A stretch of 32,000 bases of DNA, from positions 128 through 32,127 of the forward strand of contig LDAQ01000067.1 of assembly GCA_001028025.1 (NCBI GenBank), given 5' to 3'. Positions 1 to 25,570 of the stretch are shown piece after piece. The position numbers were made by a program, and so were the translations under genes. The number at the start of each line of letters is the position of its first letter. Within the stretch, counting starts at the first letter, position 1. The stretch comes from Faecalicatena fissicatena (GTDB lineage: Bacteria > Bacillota > Clostridia > Lachnospirales > Lachnospiraceae). The notes under the pieces are model-generated. The model was not told the origin of the DNA. It made no database searches and worked only from the letters and a program-made list of their open reading frames with translations.

Positions 1-70
1 GGATTCATGATCTGGAATTATAATTCAGCCGGAACAATTGCCGATACAGCATTAACAGCATCCGCAGCTC

Positions 71-443
71 CCGCCCGGATGCACCCAGCCTGTCCGGAAT
101 GCGGGACGCATGTCCGAAGCGGGAGCCCTACGGCAGCCCGGGAAACTTTCGTGCCCCTTTCCGGGGGCATAGAGAGCGCCGCTGGACTCACTTGGTAAAA
201 ACCGCATCGTATGGGGAGGCTAAAATCTGCTTCCGAAGCAGATTTTAAGACGGCCTGAGCCGCGCAATTCATCAGAATTGCACGTTGAATGCCGTCGATG
301 CCTCCCCATACGATGCGGTTTTTGCCTAGTGAGTCCCGGCAAACGGAAAGCCCCCGGAAAGGGGCACGAAAGTTTCCCGGGCTGCCGCAGGGCTCCCGCT
401 TCGGACATGCGTCCCACGTTCCGGACAGGCGTCCCTCCGCCCC
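71..443 (+). repeat. Long-hairpin element, copy A: imperfect arms of about 140 bp (88-229 / 299-430), branched apex 230-298, conserved 5' tail 74-90 and C-rich 3' tail 431-443
   Basis: The reverse complement of 88-229 matches 299-430 apart from a few mismatches and one internal loop. It shares conserved blocks with copy C, including a near-identical 43-nt apical block (252-294 vs 19011-19053, 1 difference). GC-rich compared with its flanks. It ends at the stop codon of the minus-strand thioredoxin gene. Confidence 0.85.
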
Positions 444-754
444 TACACCCTCATCATATCAACCAGTACTTTTTTTGCCAGCACCCCGCTTGCCGCCGAC
501 ACCGGCTTTCCTCCCTTAAATACAACAAATGTCGGGACAATCTCAACCTCAAATTCTGCCGCCAGGACCTCGCTTTCATCAATCTCAATCTGACAAACTT
601 TGACCCTGCCGTTATATTCTCTGGCGATCTCGTCCACAACATCTTCCATCATGGCGCACTTCCCGCACCAGACAGCAAAAAACTCAACCAATACAGGCGT
701 TTCTGACTTCAGAACCTCCTGTTGGTAATTTTTCGCAGTCACTCTGATTTTCAT
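443..754 (-). CDS. trxA: Thioredoxin-family protein with a WCGKC active site
   Basis: The ORF translation has a thioredoxin-fold signature (VLVEFFAVWCGKCAMM...VPTFVVFKGGK). ATG at 754 has AGGTG 6 nt upstream. The ORF track begins at an upstream GTG (763), which lies inside that SD-like sequence. Confidence 0.85.
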   Translation of the reverse strand: MKIRVTAKNYQQEVLKSETPVLVEFFAVWCGKCAMMEDVVDEIAREYNGRVKVCQIEIDESEVLAAEFEVEIVPTFVVFKGGKPVSAASGVLAKKVLVDMMRV

Positions 755-8552: not shown

Positions 8553-9920
8553 ATGTCAATAGAATATTTGGGACTCAGCAGTATTAACGGCCCTCTGATA
8601 GCACTGGAGGGCATCCAGGATGCCTTTTTCGATGAAATCGTAGAATTCGTCGTGGACGGCACAGAACGCAAAATTGGACGTATCGTAGAGATTTATGAGG
8701 ACAAAGCTGTCATACAGGTATTCGAAGGTTCCGAAAATATGTCCCTGAAGAATACCCATACCCGCCTTACCGGCCATCCGATGGAAATCGCTCTGTCCCC
8801 GGATATGCTGGGACGTACCTTCAACGGGATCGGGCAGCCTATCGATGATCTGGGTCCGATTACATCCACATTAAAGAGAGATGTAAACGGACTCCCGCTG
8901 AACCCTGTCATGCGGGAATATCCGCGAAACTACATCCACACAGGAATCTCCGCCATCGACGGGCTGACCACTCTGATCCGGGGACAGAAGCTTCCGATAT
9001 TTTCAGGAAACGGACTTCCCCACGACCAGCTGGCGGCTCAGATTGTGAAGCAGGCTTCCCTGGGCGAGAATTCCGAGGAACAATTTGCCATTGTATTTGC
9101 CGCCATGGGCGTCAAGCATGACGTTGCCGACTTCTTCAGGCGTACCTTTGAAGAAAGCGGTGTTGCAGACCACGTAGCCATGTTCCTGAACCTGGCAAAC
9201 GACCCGGTCGTAGAACGTCTGATCACGCCAAAAGTAGCGCTCACCGTAGCAGAATACCTGGCCTTCGAGCAAAACATGCATATCCTGGTTATCCTGACCG
9301 ATATGACCTCTTTTGCCGAAGCCATGCGTGAAGTCTCCTCCTCCAAAGGAGAGATTCCCAGCCGTAAAGGCTTTCCCGGATACCTCTACAGCGAACTTGC
9401 CACCATCTATGAGCGGGCCGGCATCGTGCAGGGTGTGAACGGTTCTGTAACCCAGCTGCCGATCCTGACCATGCCCAACGATGACATCACCCATCCGATC
9501 CCCGACCTGACCGGATATATCACGGAGGGCCAGATCGTACTGGAGAGAGAGCTGCACGGACAGTCCATCTACCCGCCGATCAACATTCTGCCGTCCCTGT
9601 CCCGTCTGATGAAAGACGGCATCGGAGAGGGCTACACAAGAGAAGACCACCAGGACCTTGCAAACCAGCTCTTCTCCGCCTACGCCAAGGTAGGAGACGC
9701 CCGAAACCTGGCTTCCGTCATTGGTGAGGATGAACTTTCCCCCATTGATAAAAAATATCTGGAATTCGGAAAAGCATTTGAAGAAAGATACATCGGCCAG
9801 GGGCAGAACGAAAACCGCAGCATGGAAGAGACTCTCAACCTGGGCTGGGAACTGCTCGGGCTGCTACCGAGAGAAGAACTCGACCGCGTCGATACCAAGA
9901 TACTCGACAAATATTATTAG
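8553..9920 (+). CDS. ntpB: V/A-type ATPase subunit B
   Basis: 455 aa with typical non-catalytic B-subunit sequence ([27 protein letters not shown]). Confidence 0.95.
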
Positions 9921-9954
9921 GGGTCAGACCCCTTTGCCAAAGGGGTCTGACCCC
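9920..9954. repeat. Perfect 35-bp palindrome GGGGTCAGACCCCTTTG-C-CAAAGGGGTCTGACCCC
   Basis: Read directly from the sequence. It starts on the last base of the ntpB stop codon and no T-tract follows it. The same half-site recurs at 25506-25570. Confidence 0.9.
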
Positions 9955-10010
9955 AATGAGCACCGTATTCAGAATATTCTGACTAATCAAACGTAAAAAG
10001 GAGGAGTTTC

Positions 10011-13778: not shown

Positions 13779-16700
13779 TTAAATATTAAAGTCCTTTTCC
13801 GAAAGGATAATTCTGTCCGCATCATCCGTATTTTTTCCAAATACACGTTTTACCAATTTCTTTGCTGATGCCTTCTGAGAATGCTCCATAGCCTCATCCA
13901 TGACTTCCTTCACTTCCGCAACTGTCACGGCATGGTCCTCTCTCTGAAGCGCGTCAATCCTGCTGTAGAGTGCAAGAATTCCCATCTCATCGATGCGGTA
14001 TCCATTTTCCTGAGCATATGTCTGGCCGAATGTTACAAGTTCATCATTAATGAAAATCGGTACTTCCAGACGGCTCGTAAACTTCCTGCGGAATTCCCTG
14101 TTGGAGGAAAGCAGTCTGTCCAGAGGCTTCCTCTGCTCTTCAAGAACAACCATCATCTCGCCTGTATCTCTTTCCATCGCCTTATTCAGCCTTGCCACGG
14201 TCTTTTCGTTCAGCTTTCCGGCCTTCTCGATAATCAGAGCGCCGCCGTATAATTTATCAAAAATATCGCTGATCTTTTTCTTATTCAGAGAGTCGCCCGT
14301 TACAATTGCAACCTTTCCCTGCCTGATATTCCTCTGCTTCTGGATTGCTTTGACAACATCCACAGCCAGAACAGTCTTACCATTTCCTTTATTACCAATG
14401 ATAAGGAGGTTGCCAGTTTTGGAAGTGCCGTTCCGGTTCGTGCAGTTATTGTCCTGCTCAAGTACATCCACAAGCTGCTCACTCATACCGCGTACCGGCA
14501 CAAAGTATGAGAATAACTTTTTCTGCTCATCTGTAAGCCCGGCCCGTGTCCCGATACCGCTCTGTGTCTCCAGATCGTATCTGCCATGGACAACAAATCC
14601 CGTGTCTGACATGGAAAGCGCATCTGAGATCTCGTTCAGCGGAAGAGGTGCTGTCTTACCTGTTGCAATCAGCTTTGCCGTTTCCTTACGGCTCAACGGA
14701 GTTGTAGCCGACATGATATCTATATCATCATCTTCATCCGGGATCTCTCTATCGTCAAATTCTTCCACTTGTTCCGGGTTCGGTCGGAACTCTTCCTCGA
14801 AACCAGCTGCTATATCTTCTATATCCTCGGCAGGCTCCTCGGTATCATATTCAGCAAGTTCCTCTTCCTCATACTCATCGTAGTAATCCTGGTCATATTC
14901 CTCTTCATATGATTCTTCCTCGATCTCATCGTAGTCTTCCTCATATGCTTCGCCATCATCATACTCATCTTCCGGATATGTTTCTTCTTCGTATTCCTCT
15001 TCACCATATCCGTCATCATAGAATTCTTCTTCAGCTTCTTCATATTCTGCCGTAAATTCTTCCTCAGCTTCCAGTTGAGACTCTTTTATATCATCGTACT
15101 CTTCATCATAAGATTCTTCTGCATCGCCGTACTCCTCGTCATAAGAATCCTCATACTCGTCTGCATAATCATCTTCATATACTTCTTCGTCTGACGCTTG
15201 AGCATATTCGTCTACTTCCTCCGGAAGGTCATCAATGAAACCTTCCAAATCTTCTTCAATACCATCGTCTGAAGCATCAAGGAACTCCGCGATATCATCA
15301 ATTCTGAGCTGCTGCGTTATTGCCCCCATATTTTCACGAGGTTCTTCATCCCTTCTGGCAGGTGTCCTCACAGTTTTGGGTTCCTCAGGCAGCACTCCTT
15401 CAATCTCGTCAATCAATCTCTGAATATCCGGCGGCAGTATCGGCTCCGCACTCTTTTTCTTTTCTTCCATCTTGTCCTCTTCTGCCGGTTCATCCTGCTC
15501 GTCATGCCCTAATCCCATTAAAATGTCTTCAATGCTGAGCTGACCTTGTATCTGGTCGTCATCCACCGGCTTTTTATTCTCCTGCTTTATATTATCTGCT
15601 GCGGCTGCATCTTCTATTCTCTCTGGTACCTCTTCGAAAGGTTCCTCCTGCAGCTCTTCTTTACTGTCTGCCAACTCTTCTTCCTCTGGCAGTTCCTCTT
15701 CTGATTCTGCTAGAGGTTCTTCCACAAACGTCTCCTCTTCGGAATCCACTATCTGTTCTGCCCCGTTATCTTCCAGCAGTTCTTCCACGTACAATAACTC
15801 TTTTGAATCTTCTGTCACTTCTTCCTCGTACAGTTCTTCTGCGGAATCTTCTGCCGGTTCTTCCTCTGGCAGTTCTTCTTCGATATCTTCCAGGGATTCT
15901 TCCCCGTACAATTCCTCTTCAGTGTCTTCTGCCGGTTCTTCCTCTGACAGTTCTTCTTCGATATCTTCCAGGGATTCTTCCTCGTACAGTTCCTCTTCAG
16001 TGTCTTCTGCTGTTTCTTCCTCCTCTTCTTCCAGCGGCTCCTCGTCCCACAATTCTTCCTCTGTTGCTTCAAGTACTTCATTGAGAAGTTCGCCGTCAAT
16101 ACCTTCTGCCTCTATTGCAGATTCTGAAAATTCCTCTTCCATATCTTCCGGGAGTTCCTCAGAAAATACCTCACCGATAATTTCTTCCACTTCCTCCAGT
16201 GATTCACCTTCCAGAAGTTCTGTCTCTTCCACAGTCACCTCTTCTGCAGGTTCTTCCGCTGTTTCCGGGGACAGTTCTTCATCCGGGATCTCATCCTCAA
16301 GAGGTTCAGCTTTCAACTCTTCCAAATCTTTATCAAATTGAATTTCTCTTTTTTTCTTTCCTGCATATTCATTTACAAGTTCCAGATCTATCACGGATTC
16401 GATTTCTTCTATTGCTACTTCCAGCTCAGGGATCTCTTCTTCGTCAAGCTCTTCCTCTTCCGTTTCTATTTTTTCATCTTTATTTTTAGGCCGCAAAAGA
16501 CTCTGCAGGGCATCCTCCAGCTTCATCCTGCTGCCGATTCCTTTTTGCTCCAGTTTTTGTACGGTCTCATCTACTGGCAAGTCATCCGGCTCACTATCAG
16601 CCTCCGGAGTCTCCTTCGCTTCTTCTGCCAAAGGCTCCTCTTTCAATGGAGTCTCTTCATCTGAATCTTCTTTAGCAGCGGCTTCTGACTGATCCGTATC

Positions 16701-17441
16701 TGTTTCTTCCGGTGAATAATCATCCCCAGAATCATCACCGTCCAGCTCTTCTGCAGCAGCAGCTTTTCTAGCCTGATATTCTGTCAAATCCGGAAGCTCT
16801 TCCGTCTCGGATTCAATCTTCTCATACCTGTGGTCATACTTTTCCTGCTGTGAAGGTGTCAGCTGTTTATACTGCATCTTAAGTTCCATCGCTTTAAATA
16901 CGAACTTTCCTTCACTGAACCAGAGGATCAAATCGTCACACTCCTCCAGACACTCGGCAGTCATACCGGCTTCCTGATATAATCTTGCCAGTTCATATGC
17001 CCATTCTTCAATGTATTCTGCCTTCTTAAACTCCTCCAGCGCTTCAATCTGCTGTTCAACCGGAGCTCTTCTGGCCCTTAATATCTTATATCGCAAAATA
17101 TGCTGGTTTGGATCCTTAGGAGCAACCTGCATAAAATCGTCATAATAGTCGATGGCTTCATCAACATTTCCTGTTTTAAGTGCAAGAGCGCATAAACGAT
17201 AGATAACCTTCCTGCTGCCTTCCGCACGATGATAAGCAATATTCAGAACCTCGTAACTCTTCTGATAGTCCCCGTTTCTCTCATATATGTCACTGACATT
17301 TGTCAGCATAGTGGCATTTCTGACTCTCTTCCAATCGATGGTATCCGCAATCTCGGCCGCTTTATTATATGCACCGCTTTCCATAAGTTCAAGCATCTGT
17401 TCTGTCTTTAACTTATATTCGTACTTGTCCACTGCACTCAC
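13779..17441 (-). CDS. Giant TPR / hyper-acidic low-complexity / CbbX-SpoVK-like AAA+ protein with an atypical Walker B
   Basis: The N-terminal ~200 aa are TPR-like helical repeats. The central ~700 aa are dominated by E/D with internal repeats. The C-terminal ~300 aa align by eye to the SpoVK/CbbX/EccA AAA+ module: Walker A GNKGNGKT (14373-14396), GGALIIEKAG in place of GGVLFIDEA (14223-14237), and NREFRRKFTSRLEVPIF resembling NPGLRSRF. The start may instead be GTG 17432 (GAGGTG 6 nt upstream). Confidence 0.85.
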   Translation of the reverse strand: MSAVDKYEYKLKTEQMLELMESGAYNKAAEIADTIDWKRVRNATMLTNVSDIYERNGDYQKSYEVLNIAYHRAEGSRKVIYRLCALALKTGNVDEAIDYYDDFMQVAPKDPNQHILRYKILRARRAPVEQQIEALEEFKKAEYIEEWAYELARLYQEAGMTAECLEECDDLILWFSEGKFVFKAMELKMQYKQLTPSQQEKYDHRYEKIESETEELPDLTEYQARKAAAAEELDGDDSGDDYSPEETDTDQSEAAAKEDSDEETPLKEEPLAEEAKETPEADSEPDDLPVDETVQKLEQKGIGSRMKLEDALQSLLRPKNKDEKIETEEEELDEEEIPELEVAIEEIESVIDLELVNEYAGKKKREIQFDKDLEELKAEPLEDEIPDEELSPETAEEPAEEVTVEETELLEGESLEEVEEIIGEVFSEELPEDMEEEFSESAIEAEGIDGELLNEVLEATEEELWDEEPLEEEEEETAEDTEEELYEEESLEDIEEELSEEEPAEDTEEELYGEESLEDIEEELPEEEPAEDSAEELYEEEVTEDSKELLYVEELLEDNGAEQIVDSEEETFVEEPLAESEEELPEEEELADSKEELQEEPFEEVPERIEDAAAADNIKQENKKPVDDDQIQGQLSIEDILMGLGHDEQDEPAEEDKMEEKKKSAEPILPPDIQRLIDEIEGVLPEEPKTVRTPARRDEEPRENMGAITQQLRIDDIAEFLDASDDGIEEDLEGFIDDLPEEVDEYAQASDEEVYEDDYADEYEDSYDEEYGDAEESYDEEYDDIKESQLEAEEEFTAEYEEAEEEFYDDGYGEEEYEEETYPEDEYDDGEAYEEDYDEIEEESYEEEYDQDYYDEYEEEELAEYDTEEPAEDIEDIAAGFEEEFRPNPEQVEEFDDREIPDEDDDIDIMSATTPLSRKETAKLIATGKTAPLPLNEISDALSMSDTGFVVHGRYDLETQSGIGTRAGLTDEQKKLFSYFVPVRGMSEQLVDVLEQDNNCTNRNGTSKTGNLLIIGNKGNGKTVLAVDVVKAIQKQRNIRQGKVAIVTGDSLNKKKISDIFDKLYGGALIIEKAGKLNEKTVARLNKAMERDTGEMMVVLEEQRKPLDRLLSSNREFRRKFTSRLEVPIFINDELVTFGQTYAQENGYRIDEMGILALYSRIDALQREDHAVTVAEVKEVMDEAMEHSQKASAKKLVKRVFGKNTDDADRIILSEKDFNI
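15821..16030 (-). repeat. 78-bp (26-aa) in-frame tandem repeat, about 2.7 copies, inside the acidic region
   Basis: Units start at 15821, 15899 and 15977 and are near-identical. They encode ...EELYEEESLEDIEEELSEEEPAEDT... Confidence 0.9.
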
Positions 17442-18160: not shown

Positions 18161-18406
18161 TGGACCTTTGCCTCCTTGATCAAATATTTTAATCTAATTG
18201 AACATTTTTATTATGTTCGTTCAGATGATTTCCTTTGAGATATCTTTTTCTTTTTTATTTATCTCGTTTGGATTAGTTAGATAATATCATACAAGCTATC
18301 ATTTGTCAACGCACTTTATTCTTTTTTAATAAATAAATATATAATTGTCCAAATTACACATATTTATCAGATTATTTCGAAAGTCAGAATTTTTTGGTAG
18401 TTGGTA

Positions 18407-18681
18407 TGGGGCCGCTGTGTGGAATTGGAACAGGCCTCTCCAGAATGCGGGATCAGGGCGTAAGTGCCGCTTCATCAAAATCGGAGCCGGCATGGTGAAC
18501 ACCGCGGACACTTGCGAGAATTCTGATGAATTCTCACTGCGGGTCTGCTTGTTTACAGGCCTTGTGGGCCTGTAAACAGTTCACATGCCGGCTCCGATTT
18601 TGATGAAGCGGCACTAACACCCCGATCCAGCATCCTGGAGATGCCTGTTCCAATTCCGCACAGCTGGGTGCATCCGGGCGG
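18407..18681 (-). repeat. Long-hairpin element, copy B (inverted orientation, divergent): arms 18413-18499 / 18569-18664
   Basis: Arms of about 90 bp are complementary with about 8 mismatches. The conserved tail CCGCCCGGATGCACCCAGC is present as its reverse complement at 18663-18681. The apex holds GAGAATT-CTGATG-AATTCTC (18516-18535), equivalent to the A/C apical hairpin with compensatory stem changes. Confidence 0.8.
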
Positions 18682-18850
18682 AAAAAATTTGACTATCAGG
18701 GGGGATAATGACGGGGGCAGCGAATTGAGTCGTTTCACTTGAGCGGAATGCCTCCGGCACTCTTATAATAATAATTACTGGGGGCATACCTATATGGGAT
18801 TCCAGCCCAATCCGCCGCTTCCGGATCCTCCCACCGTACGGTTTTCCCTG

Positions 18851-19186
18851 CGCCCGGATGCACCCAGCCAGTCTGGAGCGGGAGTTCTGCCGGCGGGCGG
18901 GGGGATTTTCCGTGCGCTTTCTGAATGCATAGAGAGCACTTACAAACACTTAAGAAAAACCATGCCGGATGGAAAGGATAAAATTTGCTCACCAAAGCAA
19001 ATTTTAAGGTGGCCTGAGCCGCGCAATTCATCAGAATTGCACGGTGAATGCCGCCGGGCCTTTCCATCCGGCATGGTTTTTCTTAAGTGTTTGTTAGTAA
19101 ACGGACCGCATACAGAAAGCGCACGGAAAATCCCCCCGCCCGCCGGCAGAACTCCCGCTCCAGACTGGCGCCCCCTCCTCGTCCCC
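18851..19186 (+). repeat. Long-hairpin element, copy C: arms 18867-18977 / 19059-19169, including a perfect 57-bp inverted repeat
   Basis: 18867-18923 is the exact reverse complement of 19113-19169. It carries the conserved 5' tail, internal loop (18927-18937 / 19099-19105) and apex (19011-19053) shared with copy A. It ends 7 nt from the stop codon of the minus-strand histidine kinase. Confidence 0.9.
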
Positions 19187-19193
19187 TCGCTTC

Positions 19194-20534
19194 CTAAATC
19201 TTAACTTGTACGGTGTAGATCCCCCCTTCATTAAGTACATACAGTTCTCCCCCATGGCGTTCCACCATTTTTCCTACGCTTTTGAGTCCGATCCGGTTGC
19301 TGTCGGTCTCATTTACTTCTTTTTTAACTGTATTTATCAGAGTTATTTTCATCTGCTGTTTTTCTGTTTTGAAGGTCAGACTGACAGGGATTTTCTTGTC
19401 TCCATATTTTAATATATTTGAAAACAGGTTGTTGAATATTCTCTTGAGCATTGTTGCATCGCCGATGACCGTTCCCCGGCTTTCTTCCATTGTCACTTCC
19501 GCCTCAAATCCGGCAAGCTTAAGGAAGTCCAGGTTTTCCTGCAGGATTTCCAGGACGGCCTGTACTGGTACCTTCTCCATGTTAACTTCCTCTGTTTCTT
19601 CAAATACAAGCGCATACTCGAACATTTTATCTGTCATCTCTTTGATGTCACTTGTTTTCTGAAGACATCTGGAAAGATACTCCTCTTCCATTGACTCCGG
19701 TATCTTTTTCAGCTGCAGTACTTCCAGATATCCGTTGAGAATCGTCAGCGGTGTCCTCAGATCATGGGATATGGCCGTGATCAGGTCCTGATTGGCCTTC
19801 CGGCTTTCTTCCTCCTGCCGGATGTTCTCATCCAGCGCAGTACGGAGCTTGTCCAGCTCTTCAGCCAGAATGCCGATTTCATCCTCCCCGCAGTCTGGAA
19901 CCGGATGCTTTAAATCGCCTGAGGCCATCTGCAGCACCTCATCCTTCAGGCAGAGAACCTGTTTCATTCTTCGGTTGATAAACAGCAGATTTATTGCCAG
20001 GAATACACCGACACTGATCAGCACGCTGATTAAAAGGTATGGATAAACCATTTTCATGGCATGATAGGAGTAAATCATCACACTGTATGTTCCATTACGG
20101 AATTCTATTGCGACCTCATCGTAGTTTTCAATTTCTCCTGATGAGACTTTGTATCCTGCATCCAATAGGCTGCCGTATACTACCCGTTCTGTAATCTCAG
20201 GATATGCACCGGCCCTGTATAGGCCTTTTCCTCCGATTTCATAAATATATATTCCGGTATATTCATCCTTGGGAGCAAAAAATGACTTGATTTCTGCCTG
20301 TTCTTCCTTATTTTCTTCCCGTTCCGGGACATCATAATATTTTGCATTCACTTCGAGCTCTTCAATCAGTGCCTGTTCATCCCAGGTGATCGAAGGGAAT
20401 CTGCACAGAAATTTCCATACATTGCCCATGTTTGACCAGACAAACCAAAAAAGAAAAAGACTTACGATCGCAGAAGCCAGCATAAGTATAGAAAGCTTCG
20501 TGCGTATTTTCCAGCTTTTTACTGCGGACTTCAT
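19194..20534 (-). CDS. Sensor histidine kinase (2 TM helices with an extracytoplasmic loop, HAMP, HisKA, HATPase_c)
   Basis: H-box ISHDLRTPLTIL, N-box FNNLFSNILKYG, G-box-like IGLKSVGKMVERHGG. The ATG at 20534 lies 4 nt after the response-regulator stop. The longer track ORF (to 20687) overlaps that gene and was not used. Confidence 0.9.
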   Translation of the reverse strand: MKSAVKSWKIRTKLSILMLASAIVSLFLFWFVWSNMGNVWKFLCRFPSITWDEQALIEELEVNAKYYDVPEREENKEEQAEIKSFFAPKDEYTGIYIYEIGGKGLYRAGAYPEITERVVYGSLLDAGYKVSSGEIENYDEVAIEFRNGTYSVMIYSYHAMKMVYPYLLISVLISVGVFLAINLLFINRRMKQVLCLKDEVLQMASGDLKHPVPDCGEDEIGILAEELDKLRTALDENIRQEEESRKANQDLITAISHDLRTPLTILNGYLEVLQLKKIPESMEEEYLSRCLQKTSDIKEMTDKMFEYALVFEETEEVNMEKVPVQAVLEILQENLDFLKLAGFEAEVTMEESRGTVIGDATMLKRIFNNLFSNILKYGDKKIPVSLTFKTEKQQMKITLINTVKKEVNETDSNRIGLKSVGKMVERHGGELYVLNEGGIYTVQVKI

Positions 20535-25503: not shown

Positions 25504-25505
25504 TT

Positions 25506-25570
25506 CAAAGGGGTCAGACCCCTTTGCCGGAGGGGACAGTCCCCTCTGCAAAAGGGTCTGACCCCTTTTC
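25506..25570. terminator. Compound palindrome between convergent genes, probably a bidirectional terminator and a GGGGTCAGACCCC-family repeat
   Basis: CAAAGGGGTCAGACCCCTTTG ... GAGGGGACAGTCCCCTC ... CAAAAGGGTCTGACCCCTTTTC. The outer arms are complementary, the inner hairpin has a 7-bp stem, and T-rich runs lie on both sides. It sits between the GT2 stop (25503) and the metG stop (25600). Confidence 0.7.

Follow-up and report, generated by a model that had tools for sequence, protein, structure and literature searches.

This analysis concerns a family of long hairpin elements found in a 32-kb stretch of Faecalicatena fissicatena DNA (contig LDAQ01000067.1), the whole of which is called the window. 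The sizeable open reading frames (ORFs) of the window that have a Pfam match all belong to housekeeping genes, among them those for thioredoxin, TrmB, the V-type ATPase operon, GlgB, an AraC regulator, a TPR/acidic-repeat protein, a two-component system, YfhO, a glycosyltransferase, MetRS, NiaR and NadABC; three ORFs (103, 154 and 208 aa) have no Pfam match. Between the genes lie three copies, A, B and C, of a non-coding intergenic element of approximately 340-450 bp, whose strands and coordinates are given in window numbering. Five newly found copies, D, E, F, G and H, located on other contigs (designated by L numbers), bring the family to eight members. The family is real, well supported and previously unrecognized, and its architecture is unusual and strictly conserved: a C-rich leader containing a box, a tail, two long arms enclosing a junction apex, and a 3' tail follow each other from 5' to 3'.

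Architecture and distribution of the family

Copy C forms one long hairpin of 303 nt, with a minimum free energy (MFE) of -253.7 kcal/mol under RNA parameters (z = -23.5 relative to dinucleotide shuffles) and, under DNA parameters, of -166.6 kcal/mol for the + strand and -167.3 kcal/mol for the - strand. A first-pass annotation, made from the sequence alone, had drawn a hairpin of ~300 nt with arms at 18867-18977 and 19059-19169; folding reproduced this hairpin, and the perfect 57-bp inverted repeat ascribed to it was located at 18867-18923. The extent originally assigned to the element, 18851-19186, covers the core correctly but is too short, in that a leader starts at ~18799 and the 3' tail reaches ~19193. 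Folds of the same type are formed by A (72-442; RNA MFE -303.6 kcal/mol, z -26.7) and by B (18395-18680, minus strand; RNA MFE -204.6 kcal/mol, z -22.3).

The unpaired parts of the element are the most uniform in sequence. When the upstream regions of all copies were aligned, the similarity of C and H was seen to start sharply. The C-rich leader comprises ~55-60 nt and carries the box in seven of the eight copies, as CCATCCG in E, F, G and H and as variants thereof in A, B and C, and D lacks it; pairing of the box with CGGATG of the tail is feasible in most copies. The tail has the consensus GGA(T/G)GCACCCAGC, the core GCACCCAGC being invariant across the family. All 18 nt of the tail are identical in copies A to G, four of which (D-G) were retrieved by that exact tail, and three mismatches occur in the tail of H (CGCTGGAGGCACCCAGC). 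The earlier description of the tail as a near-identical block therefore holds for the window, where the 16-nt sequence CCCGGATGCACCCAGC occurs exactly three times compared with 0.19 expected, but less strictly for H. A mini-hairpin, AATTCATCAGAATT, likewise occurs three times in the window, once each in A, B and C. The 3' tail has the consensus GCGYCCCC, followed by further C-rich sequence, and direct reading of all copies reveals CCCAGC / GCGYCCCC at the stem base. In seven copies, the ratio of C to G is 207:96 in the leaders (or in leaders and tails pooled) and 88:31 in the 3' tails. The C-richness of these flanks lies on the same strand of the element in all seven, regardless of the genome strand.

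The arms, by contrast with these blocks, are variable. They are 88-133 nt long and 89-96% complementary within a copy, while the stems have diverged by ~35% between copies and the arms are 50-67% identical or cannot be aligned. Discrete asymmetric internal loops interrupt them. One such loop, GCATAGAGAGC opposite AAACGGA, had been cited for A and C together with examples of divergent helices, and all of these features are present as described; the loop has the same sequence in both copies, although the adjacent stems are only ~65% identical. At the apex, A and C share a 65-nt block of 91% identity, in agreement with the common apex claimed for them. The apex measures 77-81 nt in all seven complete copies. 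Rather than the three mini-hairpins initially envisaged, it consists of two domains, H1 and P3/internal loop/P4, joined as a three-way junction. In the seven copies, H1 always has 12 bp, P3 6 bp and P4 7-8 bp, with unrelated stem sequences. The internal loop after P3 is (C)CAGCG, and P4 is closed by CATCAG, CATCAA or ATCCG. A loop of invariant sequence CATCAG, as the first-pass annotation had it, is contradicted by CATCAA in E and by ATCCG within GCATCCGGC in G.

Members outside the window were sought by scanning for exact matches to the 18-nt tail CGCCCGGATGCACCCAGC. In 185,579 species genomes, 67 such matches included three real loci: D (L049) and E (L075), both in Faecalicatena contorta JCM 6483, and F (L089), the orthologue of E in a second F. 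contorta genome. A metagenome scan returned 61 exact-tail matches, one of which, G (L092), was real. The eighth copy, H (L075:3380-3712, minus strand), was encountered during the search for empty sites; its variant tail means that exact-tail scans undercount the family. Searches elsewhere were negative: a BLAST search of phages and plasmids with C yielded only chance matches of ~40 nt, and among 22 matches of the 16-nt tail in viral contigs none was followed by the apex motif or had an exceptional fold. In the same viral contigs, two apex patterns gave no match and one match within a coding region, respectively.

By stem homology the copies fall into three subfamilies, A/C/H, B/G and D/E/F; the arms of B are homologous to those of G. 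The hosts are Clostridium sp. D5 (A, B, C and probably G) and Faecalicatena contorta (D, E/F and H). As far as the exact-tail scans can show, the family is narrow in distribution and low in copy number. Copy A and its thioredoxin gene are identical to a contig of Clostridium sp. D5 (GL870816.1, GCA_000190355.1), which assigns the window to this strain or one very near to it; the same copy is present on five further contigs and has been kept in place in all sampled Clostridium sp. D5 strains.

Two coding artefacts touch the elements. A spurious ORF of 136 aa (window 18794-19204, +) spans the whole of C and is recorded as a protein in NCBI and ENA (P0121); a search of protein space with it retrieved itself alone. 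One strain (L169:1501-1929) lacks the thioredoxin stop codon, and the ORF extends ~39 codons into A.

Concerted change of the arms and genomic placement

The stems differ between copies yet remain complementary within each of them, as had been noted for A and C. When these two copies were compared by RNAalifold, 31 of 115 pairs were changed on both sides, 5 on one side, and none was broken. A four-way alignment of their left and right arms yielded 35 concerted differences, 3 confined to a single arm and 6 that are side-specific, the last being the conserved internal loop. B and G differ by 24 concerted and 9 single-arm changes. In the set of A, C and H, 95.6% of the cells are paired and 38 pairs are doubly changed, compared with 14.8±2.8 in shuffles (0/500) and with at most 10 in slid controls. 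The paired cells in the apices of seven copies amount to 83/84 for H1, 41/42 for P3 and 52/54 for P4, with two to four pair types in most columns; these pairs were counted on a manual structural alignment, the MAFFT alignment being structurally poor. E and F, whose flanks are 92-96% identical, show 2 fully compensated pairs, 4 single-arm changes and 6 shared ancestral mismatches. Clearly, the fold is maintained while the sequence turns over.

Covariation alone is no proof of function, since arms of ~100 bp can stay complementary by recombination or template switching without selection; the conserved helix lengths, the length of the apex and the unpaired motifs are stronger evidence of constraint. 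Selection alone, for its part, is unlikely to hold such complementarity, because one mismatch hardly weakens a helix of >100 bp. Correction from arm to arm, by recombination or template switching, thus probably contributes. Homogenization is nevertheless not the whole explanation, given the conserved asymmetric loops, the fixed lengths of helices and apex, the identical tails and the C-rich flanks, which indicate recognition of a folded single strand. The first reading of the element as a structure-constrained RNA or single-stranded DNA is supported by the covariation now that further copies have been added, and both alternatives remain candidates.

The placement of the copies follows a pattern. 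Five copies (A, C, E, G and H) have their 3' tail at a distance of 2-25 nt from a convergent gene's stop codon; B and D sit upstream of co-oriented genes and not at gene 3' ends. Copies of different subfamilies form head-to-head pairs, B-C in the window (18395-19193) and E-H in F. contorta (L075:3380-4240), in which the 5' leaders face a short AT-rich core and the outer ends are the C-rich 3' tails, inverted relative to each other. The two loci are unrelated and belong to two host lineages. Homology between the B-C and E-H spacers was considered and dismissed, the comparison being unconvincing.

The elements are present in some and absent from other related species. Where the site is empty, relatives bear an ordinary terminator instead: in one (L158), a terminator follows the histidine kinase gene (kinase 69% identical), and in another (L162), the 118-nt spacer between a permease gene (92% identical) and SpoVAC contains a terminator and no element. 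The occupation of different loci in the two host lineages argues for gain by insertion or duplication. The L162 spacer holds a bidirectional terminator, AAAAACAGGTACATTCTACATGGATGCACCTGTTTTTT (L162:3520-3560), that includes GGATGCACC, 9 nt of the element tail; we estimate a chance of ~1e-3 per locus for this overlap, and no conclusion is built on it.

Several contigs depart from the canonical form. On a 707-nt metagenome contig from the thioredoxin locus (L166), the interior of A, comprising the internal loop, the inner stem and the apex, has the reverse orientation to that of the outer arm and flank, which would fit recombination between the 81-bp arms of A. A remnant of an Illumina adapter stands at the start of this possibly chimeric contig; the orientation is canonical on six other contigs and in the window. 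In metagenome contigs of the same species as the window (L153:6400-6800, L156:2370-2420), B and C have internal deletions with junctions at microhomologies of 4-6 nt. F is without apex hairpin 2, which was lost between CCCTGG repeats, H is mostly deleted in the second F. contorta genome (L089), and four contigs (L091, L154, L155, L159) end at or inside hairpins. The inverted and deleted contigs fit either arm-to-arm exchange and instability or an artefact of library preparation, PCR or assembly.

The same insertion sequence occurs near two copies, 62 nt 5' of the G tail (L092:2415-3713, minus strand) and ~190 nt 5' of A in Clostridium sp. D5 (L090:3870-4187). HTH_38 is the sole domain detected in its transposase, it probably belongs to the IS30 family, and its end reads ...CCCTGAAATTCAACCAA. 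Strains L165 and L170 lack it, and a tRNA-Lys(CTT) gene follows there. That it forms part of the element was considered and set aside in favor of an independent insertion.

Table 1. Positions of the hairpin copies A, B and C and of their parts in the 32-kb window
Feature	Position	Strand	Remarks
A, whole	58-445	+	box GCATCCG 58-64; tail 72-89
A, arms	88-168/350-430 (outer); 184-220/300-336 (inner)	+	internal loop 169-183 opposite 337-349
A, apex	221-299	+	79 nt; CATCAG 270-275
A, 3' tail	431-442	+	adjoins thioredoxin stop codon 443-445
B, whole	18395-18740	-	leader 18740-18681; tail 18680-18663; 3' tail 18412-18395
B, arms	18666-18579/18500-18413	-	78-nt apex 18578-18501; CATCAG loop 18528-18523
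AT-rich core between B and C leaders	18741-18798		-10-like boxes on both strands
C, 5' leader	18799-18850	+	C-rich; begins at ATTCCAGC
C, leader box CCCAATCCG	18806-18814	+	complementary to CGGAT of tail; DNA fold pairs ATCCG/CGGAT
C, 5' tail CGCCCGGATGCACCCAGC	18851-18868	+	
C, left arm	18867-18977	+	perfect run 18867-18923; internal-loop left side ~18929-18937 (ATAGAGAGC)
C, apex	18978-19058	+	81-nt three-way junction; H1 18979-19006
C, P3/P4 domain of apex	19008-19055	+	CATCAG loop 19029-19034
C, right arm	19059-19169	+	internal-loop right side ~19099-19107 (AAACGGACC)
C, 3' tail (GCGCCCCCTCCTCG...)	19170-19193	+	C-rich; stops at convergent histidine-kinase stop codon 19194-19196

The window has further features besides the hairpins. 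Near-identical palindromes of the GGGGTCAGACCCC type (AGGGGTCAGACCCCTTTGCCAAAGGGGTCTGACCCC) are found at gene ends (9919-9959 and 25505-25568), and the same motif is also the terminator after the histidine kinase gene in the relative L158; these palindromes look like a separate family of REP-like terminator repeats. The N-terminal part of a 1220-aa protein (13779-17441, -) contains TPR repeats; the protein also has a very long region of extreme acidity, rich in E and D and made up of 39-nt (13-residue) tandem repeats (~15643-16160). A strong sigma-70-like promoter, TTGACA-17 nt-TATTAT with TG (18281-18309, -), lies just downstream of the 3' tail of B and ~840 nt upstream of the gene for the TPR/acidic protein, which implies a long leader for that gene.

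A proposed folded DNA strand and its alternatives

Our preference, tentative and held with somewhat less than even confidence, is for a fold-dependent single-stranded DNA element that is read by an unlinked structure-specific enzyme and that works like REP/REPIN sequences, the ends of IS200/IS605 or attC sites. The element would act as one folded DNA strand, formed when the locus is transiently single-stranded, for example as lagging-strand template. Its long stem would serve as a scaffold for fixed, unpaired, strand-specific motifs: CCATCCG in the leader, GGATGCACCCAGC in the tail, CAGCG in the junction loop, CATCAG in the hairpin loop and GCGYCCCC in the 3' tail. These would be presented to a structure-specific DNA-binding enzyme whose gene lies in another part of the genome, conceivably of the HUH/Y1-transposase or tyrosine-recombinase type. 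From time to time, such an enzyme might duplicate the element or transfer it to intergenic sites or the ends of genes. The complementarity of the arms could be kept jointly by selection for the fold and by correction within the element, with the latter copying a change from one arm to the other.

The pairing itself favors DNA. G·U accounts for 3 of 215 apex pairs and for none of the 84 in H1, such that pairing is almost purely Watson-Crick. The mismatches in the arms, read on the sense strand, comprise 13 G·T and 10 A·C without strand bias, and both strands fold equally well. Structured RNAs usually contain ~5-10% G·U pairs. The near absence of G·U together with the missing strand bias leans to DNA over RNA. 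Also counted in favor of the folded DNA strand are the upkeep of the fold through sequence turnover, the constant dimensions and motifs, the poverty of transcription signals, the strand-specific C-rich flanks, the empty sites in relatives and the varying orientation to the adjacent genes.

Several observations count against a single-stranded DNA element served by an unlinked enzyme. A domain search of the ORFs of the 32-kb window revealed no transposase, recombinase or reverse transcriptase, and none adjoins D, E or H. The copies per genome are few, and those within one genome have diverged deeply and bear no trace of recent transposition. The empty sites obtained did not include one precise to the nucleotide, and no consistent direct repeat, as expected of a target-site duplication, is found at the ends of the eight copies; matches of TTCCC or CTCC are uninformative because both flanks are pyrimidine-rich. 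The known distribution is that of copies with the exact tail and the true range may be wider. Cruciform extrusion is disfavored by the 80-nt non-palindromic center, so that a source of single-stranded DNA must be assumed. Most copies are preceded, at 60-110 nt, by AT-rich regions that contain -10-like boxes, and the C-rich strand bias and the conserved loops suit an RNA equally well.

The main rival is an independently transcribed non-coding RNA, which we consider possible rather than probable. Its promoter would lie in the AT-rich region 60-110 nt upstream, and its transcript would begin with an unstructured C-rich leader, continue into a giant hairpin whose apex is a three-way junction, and end in a C-rich 3' tail. 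Binding of a protein or of the Shine-Dalgarno sequence of mRNAs could fall to the loops or to the C-rich single strands (CCUCC, UCCC), and read-through could produce an antisense RNA to the 3' end of the convergent gene; C-rich small RNAs of Firmicutes that bind Shine-Dalgarno regions or protein provide a precedent. With this agree the same polarity of the motifs and the C-rich flanks in every copy analyzed, the ability of the leader box to pair with the tail, and the resemblance of low-copy, deeply diverged paralogs with fixed loops to a gene family more than to a selfish burst. The 5' side is always directed towards an intergenic region, and in the case of A, B/C, D and E/H this region has divergent transcription units. 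A promoter-like match is located 92 nt upstream of E and directed at it, and TTGAGC-19 nt-TATAAT is present on the + strand of the B-C core, 80 nt upstream of C. These promoter matches are, however, weak or oddly spaced: at its threshold, the sigma-70 scan found no promoter upstream of B or C, the 18741-18798 core included. Nor did a terminator scan find an intrinsic terminator after the element on either strand; the hairpin is not followed by a T-run, and the terminator-like matches, confined to the stems of C and E, are at chance level. Perfect helices of 57-81 bp would be substrates of RNase III, the rarity of G·U pairs and the lack of sense-strand bias between G·U and A·C mismatches are unlike an RNA, and no Rfam match was obtained. 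The putative IS30-type insertion sequence 62 nt 5' of the G tail removes the upstream region of G and separates it from any upstream promoter; G is nevertheless intact.

It is also possible, though not probable, that the elements represent a new class: fold-dependent and strand-specific, with a scaffold of >100 bp and a junction head and C-rich tails for a dedicated partner, be it a new single-stranded DNA recombinase or transposase or a ribonucleoprotein, and without homology to REP, attC, IS ends, retrons or Rfam families. The interior may flip by arm-to-arm recombination, which would switch the displayed loops.

We regard as improbable that the elements are functionless palindromes, relics of old inverted duplications whose arms are homogenized by recombination, gene conversion or template switching. 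The equivalence of the strands and the Watson-Crick-only pairing would follow from such a process, and template switching is a documented route to perfect hairpins (bioRxiv 10.1101/2023.04.19.537475). The inverted interior of A on L166 is what an arm-to-arm crossover would give, and the microhomology deletions, the loss of hairpin 2 from F and the deletion of most of H point in the same direction; the possible chimerism of L166 detracts from the first of these. Homogenization would, however, erase asymmetric internal loops, which have kept their sequence between A and C and are still present in E and F, and it leaves unexplained the seven identical 18-nt tails, the fixed helices of 12, 6 and 7-8 bp, the apex of 77-81 nt, the loop motifs and the C-rich flanks. 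Moreover, the 12-bp mini-hairpins are too short for RecA-type conversion.

Similarly unlikely is a cis-acting gene-end element that would function on the opposite, G-rich strand, in the 3' untranslated region of the convergent gene, where it would replace a terminator or stabilize the mRNA 3' end like REP or ERIC. The closeness of the 3' tail to a convergent stop codon in five of the eight copies, with no other terminator there, and the canonical terminators at the corresponding places in relatives speak for it. Yet B and D lie away from gene 3' ends, no U-run follows the hairpin on that strand, and the role of a terminator needs neither a conserved 80-nt junction apex nor a tail or leader box.

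A hairpin that serves as RNA or DNA template for a reverse transcriptase encoded elsewhere, of the retron msd or UG27 non-coding RNA type, is highly improbable: UG27 arrays are likewise composed of structure-conserved, sequence-diverse hairpin units, but the window and the flanks examined contain no reverse transcriptase, the elements lack the UG27 motif, and with ~400 nt they are dispersed among housekeeping genes and not in viral contigs.

Two further ideas were rejected. Kissing between tail and loop (GGAUG of the tail with CAUC of the loop; 8 complementary nt in G) is contradicted as a general feature by H, which has GGAGG with an unchanged CATCAG, and by the >100-bp helix that separates tail and loop. 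A hammerhead ribozyme was suggested by CUGAUGA on the minus strand, which is situated in a hairpin loop and not in a junction core, and Rfam gave no match.

If the preferred reading of a folded DNA strand is true, bacteria of the human gut carry folded-DNA sites unlike REP, attC and IS ends, and these sites point to a structure-specific DNA enzyme, a kind of enzyme that has repeatedly yielded tools or accounted for genome plasticity. Should the elements be RNAs, they would be non-coding RNAs of a size unusual in bacteria, with perfect helices of >50 bp, and it would have to be asked how they evade RNase III. Either way, they offer a clean natural case of a structure kept through full turnover of its sequence, which can be used to separate selection from homogenization of the arms. 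In practice, the elements break short-read assemblies, yield deletion and inversion variants or artefacts, and are annotated as proteins.

Comparison with known systems

The first-pass annotation could not assign the element to a known RNA family, and the whole window had no match at gathering thresholds in Rfam 15. With an E-value limit of 10, the sole notable match in 18300-19300 was MIR8562, a generic long hairpin, with 84 bits compared with a gathering score of 211. The distinction from a miniature inverted-repeat transposable element (MITE) or IS copy likewise stands, as the arms are not common to the copies; a target-site duplication consistent across the copies was not seen. MITEs and palindromic repeats such as Correia, ERIC, RUP and BOX are also non-coding, intergenic and hairpin-forming and often lie at gene ends. 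MITE copies, however, are alike in sequence and have terminal inverted repeats and duplications, whereas here the arms differ between copies and GGATGCACCCAGC at the 5' end does not form an inverted repeat with GCGYCCCC at the 3' end.

The elements share with the REPIN/REP-RAYT system the intergenic position, a long single-stranded DNA hairpin, an asymmetric 5' tail and a compensated stem. REPIN stems, too, are maintained by compensatory changes around fixed conserved motifs (PMC3116915). Both kinds of element are presumed to depend on an enzyme supplied in trans from another locus and are passed on largely by vertical descent. REPINs are, however, ~100 nt long and present in tens to hundreds of near-identical copies with conserved paired REP ends containing GTAG. 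The elements described here measure 340-450 nt, number three to four or more per genome and have stems diverged by ~35%; their conserved parts are the unpaired tails and loops and the junction apex. No GTAG-type REP is present at the hairpin base, and the window has three copies. RAYT genes typically have REPs on their flanks; no Y1_Tnp (RAYT) domain was found among the window ORFs.

Integron attC sites also fold as a single strand and vary in sequence and length with a conserved structure. In both, the strand can be identified by unpaired bases in asymmetric positions, and the upper part of the structure varies. In contrast to the elements, attC sites have 57-141 nt, R''/R' cores (RYYYAAC/GTTRRRY) and a place in cassette arrays beside intI; such cores are not at the stem base of the elements, and the window contains no integrase. 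The ends of IS200/IS605 and PATEs are a further candidate for likeness, as their hairpins are recognized in single-stranded DNA. In both, the foot of the hairpin has sequence elements at ~20 nt on its 5' side and ~10 nt on its 3' side; IS200/IS605 is not known to generate a target-site duplication. Their two small subterminal hairpins and linked tnpA/tnpB genes differ from the single giant hairpin that spans the element studied here, and neither the window nor the flanks examined include tnpA or tnpB.

The ssoA origins of rolling-circle plasmids are strand-specific folded DNA of a few hundred nucleotides, with similarity limited to short motifs, and the CS-6 motif of ssoA, TAGCGT, resembles the junction loop CAGCG(T). 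An ssoA occurs once per plasmid or conjugative element, unlike the multicopy elements among chromosomal housekeeping genes, in which an RSB-like motif was not identified. UG27 arrays, which are found in Bacillota such as Blautia, consist of hairpins alike in structure but diverse in sequence, whose asymmetric internal loop contains short motifs; their units of ~150 nt are arrayed beside the enzyme in prophages (bioRxiv 10.64898/2026.09.22.753630). Compared with UG27 and retron msd, which have an adjacent reverse transcriptase, the elements are ~2.5 times longer and have neither an array nor a prophage context, and neither the 32-kb window nor the surroundings of D, E, G and H encode an RVT domain. 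In UG27, the motifs AUCN7UANAG and UUYA bracket the central hairpin; the former, searched as ATCN7TANAG, has eight matches in the window, none inside A, B or C. Of the features of an inverton, the occurrence of both orientations is represented by L166 alone, a possible chimera, six other contigs and the window being canonical, and the window has no recombinase that could act as a nearby invertase.

For each of the families to which the elements have been likened, REP/REPIN, IS200/IS605 and attC, a testable defining feature is thus absent; the comparison is one of working mode and not of membership.

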